Source of the DNA: a virus
Taxonomy: Duplodnaviria; Heunggongvirae; Uroviricota; Caudoviricetes
Strand: one strand, 5' to 3'
IMG/VR virus record: IMGVR_UViG_2778261418_000025
Location: 1-7,327 of that record
Length of the DNA: 7,327 bases
Position numbers and translations under genes: made by a program. The notes under the pieces were generated by a model. It was not told the DNA's origin. It saw only the letters and a list, made by a program, of their open reading frames with translations, and searched no databases. This document shows, piece after piece, positions 1-7,327 of the stretch (position 1 is the first letter of the stretch; each line of letters starts with the position of its first letter).

Positions 1-333
1 TTACTGGCAGGCTTTTTGTCCAATGTAGTATGCAATTGAGCGGTCAACTATAGGGGCCATATTTGGATCTGGTGCTGAGTTATTCATCTGCTCGATGGTC
101 TCACCGTCTCCAAGATATTTAACTGTCCCGGCAGTACAGTCGTACAGCCGCTTTGAATATGATGTTCCAGACGGCCCCTTTCTTTCAGTTGTTATAGTAG
201 CCATGCTGCCGTCGCGAGTCTTATCTAAAATCGTGTAACTAGCCTTCGTATCTGTTGGCACATAAACAACCTCAGCCGCAAACACATTAAATGAAACTGC
301 TGCCCCTACAGCTAATATAATGAAATTTTTCAT
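1..333 (-). CDS. Small secreted protein of unknown function (about 110 aa precursor with N-terminal signal peptide); cargo/moron candidate downstream of tfa
   Basis: ATG at 333..331 with AGGA about 8 nt upstream; the track ORF 1..393 starts at TTG (393) and is probably over-extended. Product begins MKNFIILAVGAAVSFNVFAAEVV (basic residue, hydrophobic core, AxA-like site, no lipobox Cys). Two Cys in the mature part. Stop codon at 1..3. Region looks AT-richer than the rest by eye. Confidence 0.55.
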   Translation of the reverse strand: MKNFIILAVGAAVSFNVFAAEVVYVPTDTKASYTILDKTRDGSMATITTERKGPSGTSYSKRLYDCTAGTVKYLGDGETIEQMNNSAPDPNMAPIVDRSIAYYIGQKACQ

Positions 334-370: not shown

Positions 371-925
371 TCAAGGAACTGAGAAAACGACAAAACCCGC
401 GTTTTGCGGGCTGTCTGGAATGGTCAGGCAATGATGTTCTGGTACTTGCTCCGGGTCTGCCATGTCTAAATCAACGGCATCCTGCAATGTGGCAATGGCG
501 TCATTGGCCTGTTTAAGCAGGCTTTTCTTTTCGGCGTCTGCCTCGCTGACTAATACAATTCGCATGGCCTCCGCATCATCCACCCACGCCTTACCATTCC
601 ATTTTTGCCAGGCATTAGCCGGTGCTAACGTGGTTGTCCCTTCCGGGTAAACACCTGGCTCGGTGATCACCAGTTCATTACCGTTTTCTGTATCAAACAC
701 CACCTCACCACGATGATCCTCACGGGAAATCCATCTTTGCTTCTCTGAATCAAAAATTGCCACAAACCCCACTTTGATTACCGGTGGTTTTATTGTTGTG
801 CAGTTGGCTGGCAGTCCAGTATGCGCAGGAATAAAAGCATCACCTGAACCAATAAATTCATTCGTGTCGGAACGCAGGTTATAAACAGTAACTGTTTGAT
901 CGGTTTCACTCATTTTAAAAGTCAT
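371..925 (-). CDS. tfa: Tail fibre assembly protein (Tfa chaperone), 184 aa
   Basis: ATG at 925..923. N-terminus [48 protein letters not shown] closely matches the lambda Tfa N-terminus as I recall it (MAFRMSE...[20 protein letters not shown]). Its ATG overlaps the stop of the upstream fibre ORF (TAATG). Confidence 0.85.
   Translation of the reverse strand: MTFKMSETDQTVTVYNLRSDTNEFIGSGDAFIPAHTGLPANCTTIKPPVIKVGFVAIFDSEKQRWISREDHRGEVVFDTENGNELVITEPGVYPEGTTTLAPANAWQKWNGKAWVDDAEAMRIVLVSEADAEKKSLLKQANDAIATLQDAVDLDMADPEQVPEHHCLTIPDSPQNAGFVVFSVP
381..410 (-). terminator. Possible weak intrinsic terminator inside the last codons of tfa
   Basis: On the minus strand: CCCGC-AAAAC-GCGGG hairpin (plus 396-410) followed by TTTTGTCGTTTTCTC. 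Stem is only 5 bp and the element lies within coding sequence. Confidence 0.25.
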
Positions 926-1404
926 TATGCGAGTCTCACTATGTAGTTAAATGCAATATTCTTAACGGTCGTTTCTGCGTTGCCCGACGCGGCGATGGTA
1001 ATGGTGTGACTGTGTGCGCCAATGGCTACGGTATGAGAGTGAGCGCCAATACCTACGGTGTGATTATGTGCGCCAATGCCAACCGTATGGGCATGTGCCC
1101 CAGTAGACGATGTTGTTGCGGTTCCAACCGTAAACCCCGTAGCCCCCGCAGCGTTGTTTCCATCACCTTTTTCTTCATTAAGTACAGGCAGCGTATGTGC
1201 ATGCGCCCCCGTTGTATTTGTCGTTTTCGTGCCATAGTCAAATGTGCTCGCCGTTTTAGTACCGTAATCAAATGAGGATGTTGATTTCGTCCCCAAATCG
1301 GTACTGGATGCACTGGCTGTGTGTGAGTGGGATTTATTGCCATCATCTTCATAGGACAAAACTTCGCGGCCGTCTGGTTTCCCTTTGATTGTCCGGCGGC
1401 GCAT
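925..1404 (-). CDS. stf: Side tail fibre protein, C-terminal (receptor-binding tip) fragment, 5'-truncated; about 159 codons from an in-frame ATG
   Basis: C-terminus ...[58 protein letters not shown] with repeated GAHxH units and duplicated FDYGTK, typical of lambda Stf / P2 H / T4 gp37-type fibre tips. Far too short for a full fibre. The track ORF 925..1599 extends upstream only by running out of frame over the gpA 3' end. In-frame ATG at 1404..1402 sits 1 nt after the gpA stop (TGAcATG). Confidence 0.7.
1000..1110. repeat. 27-bp imperfect tandem repeats (about 4 units) encoding 9-aa HTVGIGAHx repeats
   Basis: Units beginning near 1014, 1041, 1068 and 1095 (gtgcgccaat.../gagcgccaat.../gtgcgccaat.../gtgcccc) on the + strand, matching the His-x-His protein repeats of the fibre tip. 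Confidence 0.7.
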
Positions 1405-1405
1405 G

Positions 1406-2542
1406 TCAGGAATAACACCCGACGGATACGCGATGGCCAGTAAAGGATATGCGCTGCACGTCCTCTGCATACTCGTTGCCCTGTTCCGTAATTTCATAGG
1501 CCAGACGAACAACCAGATCACGGCGGGCAACCAGTGCACCGCCCTGCGCCTGGGTATATGCAGCCCAGTCCCCGACATCAGCAGCGGCCAGAACCGCATC
1601 CATTCTGCGATCGGTCAGCACCTGATCCCGCAACCGACGCAGCTCACGCCAGACAGTTACCGGCGCACCACCAATCTGCTGAAACTGACGAATACGCCAG
1701 CGTGAAGCCCATGCAGAAACGGACTTAGCCATATCACGCAGGTTTTCGCCGGTTTCTTCGTCATGCTCACCATCCAGCGCAAAACCATCAATATTTTTTG
1801 AAATGTATTTCGCGATGTAGCCCGTGGCCGAACCTTTGGCGGGATCGATAGCTTCAACATGAAAACGCGCCTTCAGCGCCTTTTCAGATTGCAGTTCTTC
1901 AGAATCGGTAATTCTGGCGTGATAGCAAAGAATATCGCGTACCGTGTCCACGTCATGCGGACGCATAAAAAGCAACATATGCCAGTGCGGTGTCCCGTCA
2001 TGGTGAGGCTCAACAACCCGAAACCCAAATACATGAATACCCGCACGCGAGATCGCTGCGCGTGCTTTTGCCCATACGCCGCATAAATAGCGCTGGGTAT
2101 CCTGCGGCGTACATCCATCCCATTGCGATACAAAGCCACCTTTGCTGTGCACTGCGTGGAAACGTGATGGCGCGGTGATGGTGTAAAACTCACCGGCCAG
2201 CCCTTCTTCATTGGCCATATCTTCAAACCCTCGCATTCTTACCATTAGTTCACATCGACGGATCGCCGGATTTGCAACGCTGCGGTGCACCATGCTGTCC
2301 AGTGCAATGCGCAGCCCCTCATCATTCAGCAGATCAAACTTTTTAAAGAACTCCAGATTCCGCTTTTTCTGGTCTATCCATTCGTCCAGTGTTTTGCGGG
2401 ATACATAAGCGCTGGCCGCTTTTTGTACCTGTCCCACCGCGATGGCCATATGTTCGCGCTGCATATCACGCGCACGTTTAAGACGTAGGTACCACCATTC
2501 CGGCGCCATCATGCGCAGTATCCCGGATTCCGCCTTACGCAT
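1406..2542 (-). CDS. A: Rolling-circle replication initiator gpA (P2 A family HUH endonuclease), internal fragment lacking expected N- and C-terminal regions
   Basis: Contains [17 protein letters not shown] (HUH-type metal site) and [13 protein letters not shown] (paired catalytic Tyr), hallmarks of P2 gpA / phiX174 A-type initiators. At 378 aa it is about half the length I recall for P2 A. The frame is open only 15 codons upstream of the ATG at 2542 (stop at 2588-2590), and the ORF ends by abutting the fibre fragment. Confidence 0.75.
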
Positions 2543-3204
2543 TTCCAGTTGACCTTCATTGGCCTCATGTTCAGCCCAGTACCGCGCTCATGGTAAGCGG
2601 TGAAATTGTCGCTTTCAGTCAGATAAGGCGGATCACAGTAAACAACGTCATTCCCGTCCCGAACCAAATCGAGCGTTTCTGAATAGTGGGCAGTAATGAA
2701 CGTTGCGCGTTTCGCTTTTTCAGCAAAGGCACGGATTTCATCAGCGGGAAAATAAGGCTTTTTGTACTTACCGAACGGGACGTTGAACTGGCCTCGGCGA
2801 TTATACCGGCACAGGCCATTGAAGCAGTGGCGATTCAGGTACAGGAAACGCGCAGCATTTTCAACAGATTCAGAACCGGCCTTACCACCAGAAAGATTGA
2901 AAGCATCACGCACTGCGTAATAGAAAATGGCACGGCTTTCTTCATCACCTAACGAACCGGCAGTAAACAGGATCTCCAGCTCATTCAGCAGCGCATCAGT
3001 GTGATACGCCATCGCCTTATAAAGATTAACCAGATCAGGATTCACATCTGCGATCAGATACTCGTCATAATCCGTATTCATCATGACAGCGCAGGAACCT
3101 GCGAACGGTTCAACCAGGCGTTTACCTTCTGGAAGGTGCGGACGCAGCATAGGCATAATGCGGGCTTTGCTGCCCACCCATTTAAGCGGAGTTTTTATTG
3201 CCAT
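2509..3204 (-). CDS. dam: DNA adenine methyltransferase (Dam family), 3'-disrupted: native sequence to about 2588, then about 25 out-of-frame codons
   Basis: ATG at 3204..3202 with AAGG upstream; the track ORF starts at TTG 3225. Product MAIKTPLKWVGSKARIM...LVEPFAGSCAVMMNTDY...LYLNRHCFNGLCRYNRRGQFNVPFGKYKKPYFPADE...VVYCDPPYLTESDNFTAYHE parallels E. coli Dam through the DPPY motif. The following tail ([25 protein letters not shown]) uses rare codons (AGG, CGG, GGA) and ends where E. coli Dam would continue about 70 aa. Confidence 0.8.
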   Translation of the reverse strand: MAIKTPLKWVGSKARIMPMLRPHLPEGKRLVEPFAGSCAVMMNTDYDEYLIADVNPDLVNLYKAMAYHTDALLNELEILFTAGSLGDEESRAIFYYAVRDAFNLSGGKAGSESVENAARFLYLNRHCFNGLCRYNRRGQFNVPFGKYKKPYFPADEIRAFAEKAKRATFITAHYSETLDLVRDGNDVVYCDPPYLTESDNFTAYHERGTGLNMRPMKVNWKCVRRNPGYCA

Positions 3205-3428
3205 GCCGCACCGCCTTTGCTGCAAATCGCCGCGGCTTCTTCGCGGATCAACTCAACGATTTCCGTTGCGCTTAAACCTTCATTGGCTGCATGGGTGGCC
3301 AGCTTATTCAGACGGGTGGAACACAAATCAGCAGCAGCGGCTTTACCTTCCTGCGTGGCTTTGGTGAGCATTGCCAGCAGGTCAGTGACTGATTTTGTTG
3401 CGGGTAAATCCTGACGTGTCATATGCAT
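3195..3428 (-). CDS. Hypothetical Ala-rich 77-aa protein, translationally coupled to dam
   Basis: ATG at 3428 with AAGGA 7 nt upstream. Its stop overlaps the dam start by 10 nt (ATGGCAATAA). No recognisable motif. Confidence 0.5.
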   Translation of the reverse strand: MHMTRQDLPATKSVTDLLAMLTKATQEGKAAAADLCSTRLNKLATHAANEGLSATEIVELIREEAAAICSKGGAAWQ

Positions 3429-3495
3429 TTTGGTTTCCTTAAGGCAAAAGAATCCCCGGCCACTTGAAACATGGCCAAAAAATTCAGGCGGTTAA

Positions 3496-3897
3496 TTAGT
3501 GAAAAGTGGGGTGTACTGTGGCAGCTGAGTAGTTCGGTACCGGAATCAGGTGCAGTTCATAGGTTGTCCGCCACCACTCCTGGATCAGTGCATTTATCTC
3601 GCCAACTCCCAGCGCCCCGGCTGTATAGAAAATCGCACGAATCCCCGCCAGCGCTTCTATCTGGGCTTCTTTGCTTTCCGCTTCGCGATACACGCAGCAC
3701 CAGAAAGCGGCATTGATCGCCAGCCAGTGACGCGGATTCGTCATGTGCTCGGTGTCATTGAAGAAGAACGGATGCAAAGCGATGCGGCCATTTTTACTGG
3801 TGCTTTTCTCTGTAAACACTACAGCGTAGTTATGCGGGACACCCCACACAGCCAGTTCAGCCCCCAACGATTTACCCTCAACGGAAATAATGGTCAT
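3496..3897 (-). CDS. Hypothetical early-operon protein, 133 aa
   Basis: ATG at 3897..3895 overlaps the stop of the upstream ORF (TAATG). Coding-like codon usage. No recognisable motif. Confidence 0.55.
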   Translation of the reverse strand: MTIISVEGKSLGAELAVWGVPHNYAVVFTEKSTSKNGRIALHPFFFNDTEHMTNPRHWLAINAAFWCCVYREAESKEAQIEALAGIRAIFYTAGALGVGEINALIQEWWRTTYELHLIPVPNYSAATVHPTFH

Positions 3898-4325
3898 TAG
3901 TGATTCCCCTGTTGCTGGAACTTATGGACGATATGAGGTGCAATCACCATCTGTACCCCACTACTGCTATAAATTGGATGTGCCTTTTTGATCGGGCGGT
4001 TCGCGGTGCGCTTTGAAAAATCGCTGTCACGTAAACTGCCGAAACCTTCAAACGTTAACCGCGCCCGTGAAATGCCCTGGCGCAGTTGAATCATGTCCCG
4101 ATAGCCCAGGCGTTCATAAATCTCACGCCAGCAACATTTGCTTAAGTGGGCTTTAAATGCCCCGGAACCAGAAGTAACCGCAGCAGCATGAAGCACCACG
4201 CCGCGCCACTCCGGTGTTAAGTTGTCCCACCATTCAGCGGCCTCGCTGCTTTCGTTGAAGTATTTGCGGCGGATCTGTTTTAAATGCTCCAGCCCGCGCT
4301 TTTGCTGTTCCTGGCTAATCGCCAT
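3897..4325 (-). CDS. Hypothetical early-operon protein, about 142 aa from ATG 4325 (track gives 207 aa from a GTG at 4520)
   Basis: ATG at 4325..4323 preceded by GGGGG 4 nt upstream. The 65 codons upstream in the same frame contain several rare codons (AGG, AGA x2, ATA, GGG) and overlap a better-looking 57-aa ORF in another frame, so the long GTG-initiated model is probably an over-extension. Confidence 0.5.
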   Translation of the reverse strand: MAISQEQQKRGLEHLKQIRRKYFNESSEAAEWWDNLTPEWRGVVLHAAAVTSGSGAFKAHLSKCCWREIYERLGYRDMIQLRQGISRARLTFEGFGSLRDSDFSKRTANRPIKKAHPIYSSSGVQMVIAPHIVHKFQQQGNH

Positions 4326-4333
4326 AACGCCCC

Positions 4334-4507
4334 CTATAGTCCCATCAGACGACGCCACCACGGGCGGCGCGGCTGCTGGCCATTGAATTTGTACATGTGG
4401 CCAGGGTTCCAGCGCTGACCGTTTGGCAGTTCTATCCAGCCCGTTGAACCACTCGGCAACTGCATGGCTGGTGATTCTTTTTTCAGGTAAGTGACAAACG
4501 CTTTCAT
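4334..4507 (-). CDS. Small hypothetical protein, 57 aa (MKAFVTYLKKESPAMQLPSGSTGWIELPNGQRWNPGHMYKFNGQQPRRPWWRRLMGL), not in the supplied ORF track
   Basis: ATG at 4507..4505 with GAGGGA 6 nt upstream, 9 nt after the cII stop. Codon usage is typical (CTG, CCG, CGC, CGT, CAG, GGC). Stop TAG at 4336..4334 overlaps the SD of the next gene. Confidence 0.5.
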   Translation of the reverse strand: MKAFVTYLKKESPAMQLPSGSTGWIELPNGQRWNPGHMYKFNGQQPRRPWWRRLMGL

Positions 4508-4516
4508 GGTGTTCCC

Positions 4517-5020
4517 TCACATCAGGCCGGTGGCGTTGGTTGTGACCAGCTCCACCGCCGCAGCCAGAACAGGCGCAGAGTGAATACGGCTTTCAACGGT
4601 ATAAGCCAGCACGGATAAGCTACGGATTGCATCGCGGGCACGATCCAGAATTTGAGTACGGCGGGCGGCAGTCATATAGCCAGTTGATACGGCTTCCCCA
4701 GCAATCGCGCCCACACTGGCTGTGGCACTCAGTGCGCACAACTGCATGTTGCCTTCTGTGGCATTGTTCACCGGCACGGATGGAAGGCAGTTAATCTGAC
4801 CTAACATCCCATCAAGCAAACGCGCATCTTCGGTGTAATCCGTGATAGCCAAAAGCTCATCACAGGTCAGGCGGTGCGGTTGTGCTGGGTTCAGTTTGTT
4901 GCGCAGGATCTGCGGCCTCATACCAACGGCAGCGGCCACATCTTCAAGATTGTGCTCAATTGCAAATGCTCGGCAAGCCGCATCAAAGTGCGCATGTTTA
5001 GAGGTCTGGTAATCAAACAT
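4517..5020 (-). CDS. cII: CII-like transcriptional activator of lysogeny (phage 186 CII family), 167 aa
   Basis: MFDYQTSKHAHFDAACRAFAIEHN...GMRPQILRNKLNPAQPHRLTCDELLAITDYTEDARLLDGMLGQINCLP matches my recollection of 186 CII (MFDFQVSKHPHYDEACRAFA...GMRPQVLRNKLNPEQPH...). ATG at 5020 with GGGAGAGG 6 nt upstream. Confidence 0.8.
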   Translation of the reverse strand: MFDYQTSKHAHFDAACRAFAIEHNLEDVAAAVGMRPQILRNKLNPAQPHRLTCDELLAITDYTEDARLLDGMLGQINCLPSVPVNNATEGNMQLCALSATASVGAIAGEAVSTGYMTAARRTQILDRARDAIRSLSVLAYTVESRIHSAPVLAAAVELVTTNATGLM

Positions 5021-5050
5021 TGTTTGCCTCTCCCGAATCCGTAGGATGGA

Positions 5051-5272
5051 TTACGCGTTAAGCGAAATGTCACATTCGCTTAAAGCCTGAATAGTGAGCG
5101 CGGCCATGTTGACTTCGACCAAGCCTTTCTTCTGCTTACCCTTCGGCTTAATAGGTAATTTCCCGTATTCGATCAGGTTCCTGGCGGTTTCTTTGTTGGT
5201 ACCAGTACGGCGGCAATACTCGTCTAAAGGCAGGTATGGCTCAGGGATGATGATTGTAATGTTCGGACGCAT
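5051..5272 (-). CDS. apl: Apl/Cox-like small DNA-binding protein (excision directionality and lytic-switch regulator), 73 aa from ATG 5272
   Basis: First gene of the leftward operon facing cI, the position of 186 apl / P2 cox. Small and basic (MRPNITIIIPEPYLPLDEYCRRTGTNKETARNLIEYGKLPIKPKGKQKKGLVEV...). ATG 5272 has GGAG 8 nt upstream; the track start at 5305 is a TTG. Assignment is by synteny and size, not recognised sequence. Confidence 0.5.
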   Translation of the reverse strand: MRPNITIIIPEPYLPLDEYCRRTGTNKETARNLIEYGKLPIKPKGKQKKGLVEVNMAALTIQALSECDISLNA

Positions 5273-5343
5273 GAGGCAAACTCCACAAGTTAACCTGTAC
5301 GGCAATACAGGGTTATATAAGGCAACATTCGAAATATGGAGCC

Positions 5344-5372
5344 AGATTAATTCGCGTTTCGAGAAGTGTCAA
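5344..5372 (-). promoter_or_regulatory. Candidate lytic promoter (pR-like) for the apl-cII operon
   Basis: Minus strand: -35 TTGACA (plus 5372..5367), 17-bp spacer, -10 TAATCT (plus 5349..5344), about 65 nt upstream of the apl ATG. The -10 is a weak match, so the exact hexamer is uncertain. Confidence 0.45.
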
Positions 5373-5393
5373 TTTTAATTTCTCGAATCGAGA
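5357..5393. promoter_or_regulatory. Candidate operator: inverted repeats bracketing the -35 element
   Basis: TTCGAGAA (5358-5365) and its exact reverse complement TTCTCGAA (5380-5387) flank the -35, with a second palindrome TCTCGA-a-TCGAGA at 5381-5393. Three TCGAGA-type hexamers lie within 36 bp. Confidence 0.4.
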
Positions 5394-5407
5394 CTTATGG
5401 ATTCGCT

Positions 5408-5989
5408 ATGAGCACATTTAAAATCGACCTAAACGTAGATAGCACACCGATTCTTGACAGGGTGATCGAGGCTTACGGATTTACGCAGAAGTTACAGCTC
5501 GCGGAACATCTGGACATGGCAGCCAGTTCTCTTTCTTCACGCTACAAGCGTGGAGTTTTCCCGGCAGACATTGTCGTGAAATGTGTAGCCGAAACAGGCG
5601 CTAATCTGGAGTGGCTGGCGACAGGACAGGGACGTAAATTTAATGATGATGAATTAGACATACTCAAAATACCGCGCAGCAAGATTGTTGATGGCCAACT
5701 CTATGACGCTGGCACACTTATGCTTGATAAAGTCATCTTCCTGCCTGGTAAGCCCTTACCGCAACAACCGATTTGTGTTCTGGATGGCCTTGTTCAGTAC
5801 ATTGTTGACCAGTCTTATTCTGAAGTTTATGACGATGATTGGTTGGTTGAAGTTGAAGGAAAAACAAGCGTCCGCACTCTTACACGGATTCCGGTACGAA
5901 AAGTCAGAGTTAGCGGTGTTGGTATGGCATTTGATTGCGGAATTGACGACATAAAAATCATAGGCCGCGTTGTTCTGACGATAAAATAA
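5408..5989 (+). CDS. cI: CI-like immunity repressor (phage 186 CI family), 193 aa from ATG 5408
   Basis: MSTFKIDLNVDSTPILDRVIEAYGFTQKLQLAEHLDMAASSLSSRYKRGVFPADIVVKCVAETGANLEWLATGQG matches my recollection of 186 CI (VLDRICEAYGFSQKIQLANHFDIASSSLSNRYTRG...ETGANLQWLLTGEG). C-terminus ...FDCGIDDIKIIGRVV also parallels 186 CI. The track start at 5366 is a GTG with no SD. Confidence 0.85.
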   Translation: MSTFKIDLNVDSTPILDRVIEAYGFTQKLQLAEHLDMAASSLSSRYKRGVFPADIVVKCVAETGANLEWLATGQGRKFNDDELDILKIPRSKIVDGQLYDAGTLMLDKVIFLPGKPLPQQPICVLDGLVQYIVDQSYSEVYDDDWLVEVEGKTSVRTLTRIPVRKVRVSGVGMAFDCGIDDIKIIGRVVLTIK

Positions 5990-5990
5990 A

Positions 5991-7031
5991 ATGAGCGTTC
6001 GTAAACTTCCTACAGGCGAATGGATCGCCGACTTCTACACCGTCAACCGCAGTAATGGCAAGAACGGGAAGCGTATACGTAAAAAATTTGCCACGAAAGG
6101 GGAAGCCCTGGCATTCGAAAACCATACGCTTCAGAAAGTAGACGCAGCTCCGTGGCTGGGTGAAGGGAAGGACAAGCGAACTTTAATAGATCTGATAACA
6201 ATGTGGTATGAACGCCACGGCGTAGCTTTGAGCAATGGCGAAAAGCGTAAAAATGCTATGACCTGGGCGGCGGAATGCATGGGATTCCCGCTGGCCACAG
6301 AATTTAATGCCCAGTTGTTCACAGCCTACCGCGCTAAAAGGCTGGATGGGCATTATGCCCGTACCAACAGAGTATCTAAGGTTTCCCCGAAAACTATGAA
6401 CCTTGAACATGCTTACTTCCTGGCTATGTTCAACGAGCTGAAACGGATTGGTGAATGGTCAGCACCCAACCCACTAGAAAACGTCAGACAGTATCGTACT
6501 GATGAAACCGAAATGGCTTTCCTCACTACCGAAGAAATTGATCGGCTTTTACTGGAATGCAAACGAAGTAAAGTTAAGTACCTAGAATTAGTTGTCAAAA
6601 TCTGCCTTGCTACCGGCGCAAGGTGGAATGAGGCGGCAACGCTGAAAAGCTCCCAGATCGCCGGGGGTAAAGTCACGTTCGTCAAAACCAAAGGGAAGCG
6701 CAACAGAACAATTCCCCTTGATGATGAACTTCTGTCCGAATTACCTGAAACAAAAGGCGCTCTGTTCCCCAAGCCCTGCTACAACGCTTTCCGCTCTGCT
6801 CTGGAACGTGCAGGCATTGAACTCCCCTCCGGCCAGCTTACCCATGTACTGCGCCATACATTTGCCAGCCACTTTATGATGAACGGCGGAAACATTCTGG
6901 TTCTGCAAAAAATTCTCGGCCACGCTGACATCACTATGACAATGCGTTATGCCCATTTCGCCCCAAGCCACCTTGAAGATGCCGTGCGACTTAACCCCTT
7001 AAAATGTCGCAAAAATGTCGCGACAGCTTAG
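5991..7031 (+). CDS. int: Tyrosine site-specific integrase (P2/186 Int family), 346 aa
   Basis: N-terminus MSVRKLPTGEWIADFYTVNRSNGKNGKRIRKKF resembles P2 Int (MAIKKLDDGRYEVDIRPTGRNGKRIRRKF, recalled). Catalytic motifs present: TGARWNEA, HVLRHTFASHF, LGHADITMTMRYAHF. ATG lies 1 nt after the cI stop (TAAaATG). Confidence 0.9.
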   Translation: MSVRKLPTGEWIADFYTVNRSNGKNGKRIRKKFATKGEALAFENHTLQKVDAAPWLGEGKDKRTLIDLITMWYERHGVALSNGEKRKNAMTWAAECMGFPLATEFNAQLFTAYRAKRLDGHYARTNRVSKVSPKTMNLEHAYFLAMFNELKRIGEWSAPNPLENVRQYRTDETEMAFLTTEEIDRLLLECKRSKVKYLELVVKICLATGARWNEAATLKSSQIAGGKVTFVKTKGKRNRTIPLDDELLSELPETKGALFPKPCYNAFRSALERAGIELPSGQLTHVLRHTFASHFMMNGGNILVLQKILGHADITMTMRYAHFAPSHLEDAVRLNPLKCRKNVATA

Positions 7032-7198
7032 AAATACTGCCGAATACTCACAGATATTAACTAACGTAACTTATTGATAACACTGTAAGTTATTGTTTTT
7101 CGTAGATAGTTGATGCTTTATAATATAGCCTGTGCTATATCTGTATGTAATGCAATCATCCCTCAAGGATCGACGGGATTAGCAAGTCAGGAGGTCTT
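7032..7198. other. AT-rich att-proximal region downstream of int (probable prophage end / Int arm-site region); core not identified
   Basis: Immediately 3' of int, where P2-like phages carry attP. Visibly AT-rich with short direct repeats (AATACT at 7033 and 7043; TTATTG at 7071 and 7090) and a TATAAT at 7119-7124. No tRNA-like sequence recognised. Confidence 0.35.
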
Positions 7199-7327
7199 AT
7201 GAATGAGTTCAAGAGGTGTATGCGCGTGTTTAGTCATTCTCCCTTTAAAGTACGGTTAATGCTGCTCTCTATGTTGTGCGATATGGTCAACAACAAACCG
7301 CAGCAAGATAAACCTTCCGATAAATAG
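7199..7327 (+). CDS. Small ORF, 42 aa (MNEFKRCMRVFSHSPFKVRLMLLSMLCDMVNNKPQQDKPSDK), unknown function
   Basis: Consensus SD AGGAGG (7189-7194) 4 nt before the ATG at 7199; stop TAG at 7325-7327. Too short to appear in the ORF track. May lie outside the prophage. Confidence 0.4.
   Translation: MNEFKRCMRVFSHSPFKVRLMLLSMLCDMVNNKPQQDKPSDK

Follow-up and report, generated by a model that had tools for sequence, protein, structure and literature searches.

The locus studied here raises the question of why the gpA gene of a P2-family prophage lies directly against the end of a tail fibre gene, and whether the open reading frames (ORFs) that meet at this point are genes or remains of genes. The stretch of DNA that was analysed (7,327 nt, referred to as the window) is an exact substring of contig JAFMWU010000004.1 in assembly GCA_017597905.1. 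The original prediction regarded the adjacency as a deletion junction, and it also proposed that the stop and start codons found there could allow coupled translation of an orphan fibre tip together with Tfa. The adjacency is a real deletion scar in a defective P2-family E. coli prophage. The best explanation of the whole locus, which we hold with high confidence, is that three microhomology deletion scars have left a remnant that would be defective in replication and particle formation, with its gene fragments as pseudogenes. The features around the gpA/fibre junction (junction A) are as follows.

1448..1452, minus strand: junction A, a 5-bp microhomology (TATGC) at which 16,571 bp are absent relative to the intact prophage
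1448..2582, minus strand: gpA fragment, complete codons 183-560 of 673, without the N-terminus, the C-terminus and the putative ori
925..1452, minus strand: fibre gene fragment, codons 351-525 and the stop codon, 100% identical to L001 2907-3434
1406..1408, minus strand: TGA ending the gpA-frame ORF, read out of frame in fibre-derived DNA (cCT GAc)
1402..1404, minus strand: ATG, the internal Met367 codon of the 525-aa fibre

An intact prophage of ~28.9 kb is present at the same mntS-mntR site in E. coli CM2010-0578/1 and is 100% identical over all the retained bases. The window matched it in four collinear blocks (1-459, 458-1452, 1448-2582 and 2581-7327) with zero substitutions, and the remnant differs from the intact element only by three gaps of 3,021, 16,571 and 780 bp (20,372 bp altogether). 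Six further complete genomes matched at 99.8-100%. In the intact relatives a 673-aa gpA and a 525-aa fibre are separated, in the predicted gene order, by 21 complete genes (ogr, portal, terminases, scaffold, capsid, head completion, tail, lysis, tape measure and baseplate), which agrees with the earlier view that the two genes lie far apart in such phages. The intact relatives were checked for a gpA that is naturally short and lies directly before a short fibre gene, and none was found.

Junction A was placed by base-by-base comparison with the intact relative: the left block, made of fibre-derived DNA (plus-strand orientation), matches to 1452, and the right block, made of gpA-derived DNA, matches from 1448, with no inserted bases. 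The predicted loss of a large segment is thus confirmed by the missing 16,571 bp, but the breakpoint at 1448-1452 lies 8 nt outside the interval where it had been expected (1380-1440), and 40-46 nt upstream of the TGA/ATG pair. The DNA missing at this junction comprises gpA codons 561-673 with the putative ori, fibre codons 1-350, ogr, and every packaging, capsid, lysis, tail and baseplate gene. At the TATGC repeat gpA codon 560 is fused to fibre codon 351, and the gpA frame continues out of frame into fibre DNA until it meets, by chance, a TGA one base before Met367. The final 13 codons of the "gpA" ORF are out-of-frame fibre DNA, and the fibre-derived DNA at the junction amounts to 175 codons (residues 351-525), not 159.

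Direct reading of the minus strand also bore out the stop/start arrangement as it had been described, i.e., TGA at 1408-1406, one base, and then ATG at 1404-1402, in frame with 159 codons that end at 925 and correspond to residues 367-525 of the 525-aa fibre. This TGAcATG belongs to the fibre sequence itself (..I P D M R.. = ATT CCT GAC ATG CGC) and is unchanged in the intact phages. When out-of-frame entries were simulated, 5.2% of fibre entries, 12% of gpA entries and 11% of entries pooled over 26 prophage genes had their first out-of-frame stop at -4..+4 nt from an in-frame ATG. Because 5-12% of such entries are expected to give this result by chance, the adjacency is unremarkable and any special significance of TGAcATG was rejected; the neat arrangement is a by-product of the deletion.

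Two other junctions, B and C, and the fusion ORFs formed at them were located in the same way.

2581..2582, minus strand: junction B, a 2-bp microhomology (AC) with 780 bp missing (dam codons 209-286 and gpA codons 1-182)
2509..3204, minus strand: dam fusion ORF, Dam residues 1-208 of 286 and then 23 out-of-frame residues
458..459, minus strand: junction C, a 2-bp microhomology (TG) with 3,021 bp missing
371..925, minus strand: tfa fusion ORF, Tfa residues 1-156 of 195 and then 28 unrelated residues (RefSeq WP_239929809.1)
394..412, minus strand: terminator-like hairpin with a T-run, which follows the spike gene in the intact phage

It had been stated that the middle of gpA is fused to the fibre gene. 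The middle is retained, but only because the separate 780-bp deletion at junction B removed the first 182 codons. The TGA of the dam fusion (2511-2509) overlaps the Met206/207 codons of gpA (ATGATG). Junction C has cost the element codons 157-195 of Tfa, a gene of 241 aa, a baseplate gene of the HP1_ORF34 type and the greater part of a spike gene resembling gpV/Gp5, and the match to Pfam Caudo_TAP is reduced from profile positions 1-130 of 131 in the full Tfa to 1-96 in the truncated one. The 28 unrelated residues of the tfa fusion read through the hairpin at 394..412, which would end any read-through transcript here. Four genes are therefore cut in mid-ORF at the junctions, with gpA 183-560/673, fibre 351-525/525, Tfa 1-156/195 and Dam 1-208/286 remaining. 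Two irregularities in the BLAST alignments were discarded: a 1-bp indel in the 454-1452 block is an alignment-edge artefact at junction C and not a fibre/tfa frameshift, and the single mismatch in the gpA block was caused by extension past junction B.

The ORF called over the gpA fragment (1406-2542, minus strand, 378 aa) matches Pfam Phage_GPA (E=1e-100, profile positions 69-320 of 321) and keeps the HUH motif (HWHMLLF) and the tyrosines of YIAKYISK that are characteristic of rolling-circle initiators. The P2 nick sequence has a conserved counterpart in the intact relative at gpA codons ~600-609 (26/30 nt, by protein and DNA alignment), and a search of the window for this alignment-mapped homologue found no P2-type nick sequence. 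The gene resembles P2 gene A in its Phage_GPA match, its HUH and YxxxY motifs and the nick sequence conserved in the intact relative, but the window fragment, unlike P2 gpA, lacks residues 1-182 and 561-673 and would lack the ori. The gpA of phage P2 (NC_001895) has 761 aa, whereas that of the relative has 673 aa and is preceded by dam.

The remaining parts of the window, which were retained without damage, and the host flank are listed below.

1..333, minus strand: intact 110-aa gene with a signal-peptide-like N-terminus (phrog_13843)
3195..5272, minus strand: intact early operon remainder, 100% identical to the intact relative
3195-3428, minus strand: DUF2732 gene, early operon
3496-3897, minus strand: orf133, early operon
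3897-4325, minus strand: orf142, early operon
4334-4507, minus strand: fil, 186 family match
4517-5020, minus strand: cII, 186-type family
5051-5272, minus strand: cox/apl-like gene, Cox-like excisionase (phrog_575)
5408-5989, plus strand: intact cI repressor, 186-type
5991-7031, plus strand: intact tyrosine integrase
7115..7129: 15-bp att core, GCTTTATAATATAGC, prophage/host boundary upstream of rybA/mntS
7199-7327: mntS, host flank

A second copy of the att core (14/15 identical) lies 1,405-1,419 nt to the left of the window, and the remnant measures 8,549 bp and still has int, cI, cox/apl, the two att cores and some small genes. Its place in the P2 family (Peduoviridae) is indicated by the Phage_GPA initiator, the divergent int-cI / cox(apl)-cII-...-A early region and the collinear structural genes of the full-length relatives, where P2-family capsid, GPO scaffold, gpM, ogr and baseplate J are carried; the cI, cII and fil families match those of the phage 186 switch. 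Gene order and families are as in the Quadragintavirus phages ESSI2_ev129, ev239, ev015 and ev040, with 87-89% identity over fibre/Tfa. Since the putative ori, both gpA ends and every virion and lysis gene were lost, the remnant should neither replicate nor form particles, and its gene content supports the defective prophage that had been predicted. The ORFs dam', gpA', fibre' and tfa' evidently are pseudogene fragments, and they are probably not expressed. Synteny and the absence of the terminase and portal genes are the only grounds for taking cos as lost; a P2 cos 19-mer (up to 4 mismatches) had no credible match in the intact relative or the window, although a P2-type query may not fit the cos of this genus. 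An Rfam scan of the window gave no family at the gathering score, and a promoter scan, which also missed the known switch region, gave nothing near the junction.

The same scar was present in 14/14 fetched public E. coli loci, derived from 11 distinct contigs. The exact fusion proteins occur on 19-26 contigs (NCBI, ENA, Logan), and 16 further loci were reported with similar gene neighbourhoods. Junctions A and C were found in all 11 distinct fetched contigs, and junction B in each of those where its site remains (9/11). Exact 40-mers of A and C had no matches in JGI metagenome contigs, nor had those of A and B in GTDB species representatives. Among the close descendants, which were retrieved with tfa' or gpA' as queries, at least five further deletions have occurred, all private and all in the early operon (junctions D-H; 423-3,760 bp; microhomologies of 2-5 bp, i.e., TA, CCAT, GAACC, CTT and TA), together with one frameshift in tfa' at 917 (codon 3) in two public runs (L013, L015), as against a single synonymous SNP. 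The remnant is apparently still eroding by further deletions in related isolates. A second lineage, PSJ-16, broke up the same prophage independently by three deletions, which left islands of just 58 and 240 bp and took away fibre and tfa completely. All five extra deletions fell in the 3.8-kb early region and none in the 1.9-kb int/cI region, but with P at ~0.13 under uniformity, and with sampling skewed by the proteins used as queries, we make no claim for selection to keep int/cI or against the early operon. With three scars and zero substitutions relative to its intact sibling, the locus is a small and clean case of deletional bias, and this identity means that the scars can be read to the base and the descendants with later deletions can be ordered. 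The Quadragintavirus-like prophage at mntS-mntR could thus be a convenient natural system for studying the rate and pathway of prophage dismantling in E. coli.

The remnant most probably arose by three microhomology-mediated (illegitimate) deletions in a ~28.9-kb P2-family Quadragintavirus-like prophage between mntS and mntR. At each of the junctions A-H a short repeat found at both parental ends occurs once in the product, with no filler. Such clean junctions, with 2-5 bp of microhomology and 0.4-16.6 kb lost, are like those of microhomology deletion or alternative end-joining in E. coli, where chromosomal breaks led to deletions of 12.9-35 kb, some of them at micro-homologies (PMC4872102); the same paper cites end-joining deletions of up to 40 kb from Chayot et al. 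2010. The pathway may have been slippage, end-joining or template switching, of which the first two, acting at the microhomology, are the mechanism proposed for the remnant. The 40-mer searches gave no intermediate that had just one or a pair of junctions A, B and C, and PSJ-16 also has three deletions; for these reasons a single complex event, in which a multi-jump template switch or multi-break repair would have produced A, B and C together, was also considered. It is of weaker novelty, yet likelier than an orphan tip.

It is improbable that the deletion was started by gpA itself through cutting at its own ori followed by misrepair, with the gpA-side end of junction A being the nick. In P2 the annotated nick (nt 29892) falls 81% of the way along gene A, and junction A falls at 83% in the gpA of the relative; moreover, the nick would be inside the deleted segment, so that a looser version with a break and asymmetric resection can be conceived. 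However, the conserved nick sequence at codons ~600-609 is 43 codons beyond junction codon 560, about 129 nt from the endpoint, and the strict form was rejected for this discrepancy. The seven other junctions in the lineage have the same 2-5-bp microhomology and none is at the nick sequence.

Even less probable is an exapted module, in which the fibre tip and the Tfa fragment would be expressed from the early promoter by termination-reinitiation at TGAcATG and give a product useful to the host, for example a decoy that blocks receptors or a tip used by another tail or tailocin. Both fragments share the strand of the early operon and follow it, no strong terminator lies between 3453 and 412, and dam', gpA', fibre' and tfa' are joined by stop/start overlaps. 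Incomplete prophages show a statistical enrichment of tail-fibre genes (PMC7744054), and fibre' and tfa' were kept in all the variants found, though these were found with tfa' or gpA' as queries. The proximity of stop and start is of the kind seen in translationally coupled pairs, but constraint, an intact partner and a ribosome-binding context, as would be expected of a maintained downstream product, were not observed at fibre'/tfa'. No Shine-Dalgarno sequence is present 5-10 nt before ATG 1404, where only GGGTG with an 11-nt spacer occurs. The fibre fragment keeps its C-terminal HxH-repeat tip but begins inside the Collar domain, and the N-terminal baseplate-attachment domain is gone, as are the C-terminal 39 residues of Tfa. 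The adjacency is native to the fibre and within chance expectation, tfa' is frameshifted in two runs, the independent PSJ-16 remnant has neither gene, and with zero substitutions since the deletion selection is unreadable either way. The idea of coupled translation of an orphan tip with Tfa is accordingly not supported, as Tfa is truncated and the late promoter and the activator gene ogr are deleted. There is likewise very little chance that the tip, under the early immunity-controlled promoter, is translated as an orphan protein on derepression through the accidental overlap chain; if so, it could have a host-level role (receptor masking) or serve as a ready donor cassette when incoming phages recombine for host range.

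A functional mini-element, i.e., a phage satellite or mobile island of int, cI, cox and fragments that exploits a helper phage, is very improbable. The intact int, cI, cox/apl-like gene and att cores may still permit excision, but the retained bases are all identical to the intact prophage, four genes are truncated in mid-domain, the putative ori is gone and the descendants continue to lose DNA. No primase/replicase, capsid-size or helper-manipulation gene or recognisable cos is present, and a search of the window for P4-like or PICI-like satellite genes found no primase, alpha, psu, sid or delta-like gene. A tailocin or domesticated tail cluster was rejected, with sheath, tube, baseplate and lysis genes all in the deleted 16.6-kb and 3.0-kb segments. 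Finally, a misjoin in a chimeric contig might be suspected, because the sequence comes from a draft assembly and junction A is not spanned in any complete E. coli genome of the collection. It can be dismissed: the junction is the same base for base in the 11 distinct contigs, which come from NCBI, from ENA metagenomes and from Logan assemblies of unrelated runs; some of these contigs are 113-156 kb long (the longest recorded has 344 kb) and have normal host sequence on either side; a k-mer assembly graph cannot collapse at a 5-bp repeat; and derived variants carry the junction together with a phylogenetically consistent SNP.

The three microhomology deletions thus remain the preferred reading, and the locus is a case of ordinary prophage decay. 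Cryptic ("grounded") remnants such as CPS-53/KplE1, e14, Rac and Qin are well known in E. coli K-12. Cryptic and defective E. coli prophages have been treated in reviews and analyses (PMC6379469; PMC7744054; PMC2669165), and in incomplete prophages the genes for replication, packaging and lysis are lost preferentially and those for integrase and tail fibres are enriched (PMC7744054). The remnant resembles them in lying at its att site and having an integrase, a repressor/excisionase and fibre/Tfa fragments with replication, packaging and lysis gone, but it differs in being very young, having zero substitutions relative to a circulating intact prophage. The finding alone adds little beyond confirming the locus as a dead prophage. 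It is necessary, however, to annotate the ORFs around 1400 as pseudogene fragments, for at present tfa' is listed under an ordinary RefSeq protein accession, and the ORFs of 159 aa and 378 aa appear among the gene calls.

The catalytic HUH and tyrosine motifs that remain in the gpA fragment are a counterpoint to the loss of function. The stop/start chain dam'-ATGA-gpA'-TGAcATG-fibre'-TAATG-tfa' leaves some translation possible on derepression.

In the prophage of E. coli CM2010-0578/1 (L001, L002), which is intact and sits between mntS and mntR, gpA (673 aa) and the fibre gene (525 aa) are separated by 21 complete genes, as the original prediction had expected: ogr, portal, large and small terminase, scaffold, P2-family capsid, head completion, tail, holin/endolysin/spanin, chaperone, tape measure and baseplate genes. 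Dam and Tfa are 286 and 195 aa. The nearest sequenced phages, the ESSI2_ev phages (genus Quadragintavirus, family Peduoviridae), have the same gene order. When the window was compared with 5,426 complete E. coli genomes by megablast, none of them spanned position 1448. In seven genomes, 1448-7327 matched at about 100% identity, while 454-1452 and 1-459 matched elsewhere in the same prophage. Breakpoints were placed by BLAST and base-by-base extension against the intact prophage. The window consists of four collinear blocks that match that prophage at 100% identity, with three clean deletions between them.

Deletions in the window relative to the intact prophage
458-459, junction C: microhomology TG; 3,021 bp deleted; Tfa codons 157-195, a 241-aa gene, an HP1_ORF34-type baseplate gene and most of a gpV/Gp5-like spike gene lost
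1448-1452, junction A (the gpA/fibre join): microhomology TATGC; 16,571 bp deleted; gpA codons 561-673, the 21 intervening genes and fibre codons 1-350 lost
2581-2582, junction B: microhomology AC; 780 bp deleted; Dam codons 209-286 and gpA codons 1-182 lost

The predicted loss of a large segment was thus confirmed, and the proposed alignment to intact relatives resolved the breakpoint to the base. However, the adjacent stop and start codons that had been taken as the junction, although real when read on the minus strand, do not mark it; junction A lies 40-46 nt upstream of them in the gpA reading direction, 8 nt outside the interval originally proposed.

Reading frames around the gpA/fibre join
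1406-2542, minus strand: gpA-like ORF of 378 aa, strongly similar to gpA, the initiator of P2 replication (Phage_GPA family of Pfam at E=1e-100, covering profile positions 69-320 of 321)
1408-1406, minus strand: TGA ending the gpA-frame ORF, read directly
1404-1402, minus strand: ATG one base after the TGA, opening 159 codons that contain a phage tail-fibre repeat and end at 925
371-925, minus strand: Tfa ORF, next after the fibre ORF
412-394, minus strand: terminator-like hairpin

Comparison with the intact relative identified the ATG as internal Met367 of the full-length fibre and TGAcATG as native fibre sequence (CCT GAC ATG). The fibre-derived DNA encodes residues 351-525, starting within the Collar domain (325-372), and the gpA ORF ends in 13 codons of out-of-frame fibre DNA. 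The fibre frame is also open for 49 codons further, in DNA derived from gpA. The result is a spurious chimeric ORF of 224 aa (925-1599, minus strand) that gene callers could pick; a 181-aa version was called in L005, a public remnant locus. Junction B joins dam codon 208 out of frame to gpA codon 183, and the TGA that then ends dam' (2511-2509) overlaps the codons for gpA Met206/207 (ATGATG, 2512-2507). Junction C cuts Tfa after residue 156, and the tfa' ORF continues for 28 junk codons through the terminator hairpin (394-412); this product, junk codons included, is listed as an ordinary RefSeq protein, WP_239929809.1.

Coupled translation of the fibre tip and Tfa, which had been suggested from the TGA/ATG arrangement, found no support. 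In a simulation of all out-of-frame entries, the first stop fell within -4 to +4 nt of an in-frame ATG in 5.2% of entries into the fibre gene, 12% into gpA and 11% into 26 prophage genes. TGAcATG and the dam'/gpA' overlap, a second chance stop/start, are expected by-products. No Shine-Dalgarno sequence is present 5-10 nt before the ATG at 1404, and Tfa lacks its 39 C-terminal residues, its Caudo_TAP match being reduced from 1-130 to 1-96 of 131 profile positions. The early operon is now upstream of fibre' and tfa' on the same strand, and since the late promoter and ogr were both within the deleted DNA, transcription would occur only via read-through of that operon. A 1-bp deletion at 917 (homopolymer AAAA, 917-920), which frameshifts tfa' codon 3 in two public runs of one project (ERR4563762, ERR4563760), could be either real decay or a homopolymer error.

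In public collections, the exact fusion proteins were found in 19 (gpA'), 21 (dam') and 26 (tfa') contigs, and contig JAFMWU010000004.1 of GCA_017597905.1 contains the window as an exact substring. Fourteen loci fetched from NCBI, ENA and Logan (L003-L016) represent 11 distinct contigs, three loci being second retrievals. Junctions A and C are common to all, and B is present wherever its site remains (9 of 11 contigs). Misassembly is excluded because the same scars recur across these sources. The junction 40-mers gave no match in JGI metagenome contigs or GTDB species representatives.

All junctions are clean, at short direct repeats and without filler DNA, which points to probable RecA-independent illegitimate recombination, whether by slippage during replication, by template switching or by microhomology end-joining. 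In E. coli, chromosomal breaks are reported to be followed by 12.9-35-kb deletions, some at micro-homologies (PMC4872102), and work cited therein describes an end-joining pathway with deletions up to 40 kb. Breakage at ori and then asymmetric resection could possibly have produced junction A instead; the ori-like sequence falls in the deleted DNA and is absent from the window. The gpA nick itself was rejected as the endpoint, its homologue lying about 129 nt beyond the junction. The annotated P2 nick (nt 29892, A codon 620) aligns to conserved sequence at gpA codons ~600-609 of the relative (within L001 19860-19890, codons ~598-609). The P2 sequence, GCCGCGCCTCGGAGTCCTGTCAATAACTGT, shares 26 of 30 nt with its counterpart in this Quadragintavirus-like relative, whereas the gpA proteins are only about 40% identical, which suggests a nick site common to Peduoviridae genera.

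Illegitimate recombination at microhomology would also fit the extra private deletions of several fetched loci, all in the early operon and with microhomology of 2-5 bp.

Further deletions in L004-L008 (public contigs GCA_022396875.1, ERR1759079, ERR10227574, ERR3328046, SRR17171697)
D: 662 bp, TA; cII 3' end, fil and orf142; L004, L005, L006
E: 423 bp, CCAT; within gpA'; L004
F: 2,284 bp, GAACC; gpA' into dam'; L005
G: 1,812 bp, CTT; dam' into cII; L007
H: 3,760 bp, TA; gpA' to start of cII; L008

Close relatives have at least five more independent deletions, of 423-3,760 bp, against a single synonymous SNP (C782A), a very high deletion-to-substitution ratio. This could reflect either selection against fil/cII/gpA' or neutral deletional bias. 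PSJ-16 (NZ_AP027632.1; locus L020, 20001-21830), a complete and unrelated genome, has a remnant of this prophage at the same site that arose independently: its three deletions, of about 12.2, 1.3 and 11.4 kb, differ from those of the window and leave islands of 240 and 58 bp. Because of these three deletions, and because no intermediate with just one or two of junctions A, B and C turned up, single complex multi-jump events are a possibility.

The window locus is a textbook cryptic prophage; it did not qualify as a satellite, a tailocin or a maintained coupled gene pair. As originally predicted, the remnant should be unable to replicate or form particles, because the ori-like sequence, both ends of gpA (HUH and Tyr motifs are kept) and the packaging, head, tail, baseplate and lysis genes are missing. 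These lost and kept gene classes agree with the bias reported for incomplete prophages, which lose genes for replication, packaging and lysis and are enriched in integrase and tail-fibre genes (PMC7744054); the same decay process is described in reviews on 'grounded' prophages (PMC6379469). The remnant is a neat illustration of deletional bias in an already known kind of system. Zero substitutions separate it from a circulating intact sibling despite three scars, and its descendants are still losing DNA; its young age is slightly unusual.

Of the intact element's roughly 28.9 kb, the remnant keeps 8,549 bp. It retains intact the integrase, 186-type cI, a Cox-like excisionase/repressor (phrog_575), cII and fil, plus three small genes of unknown function. 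The right 15-bp att core, GCTTTATAATATAGC (7115-7129), lies between mntS and mntR, immediately upstream of the region in which the rybA/mntS transcript starts; the left core (L003), 1,405-1,419 nt beyond the window's left edge, differs from it at one position. Since the integrase and Cox-like genes are intact and both cores survive, the remnant may still be excisable. At the prophage end, a 110-aa protein of unknown function with a signal-peptide-like N-terminus (phrog_13843; 1-333, minus strand) and, about 0.6 kb left of the window, a hexapeptide acetyltransferase-like gene (phrog_2154; L002 6919-7614) are candidate lysogenic-conversion genes; both are intact in every remnant seen, PSJ-16 included.
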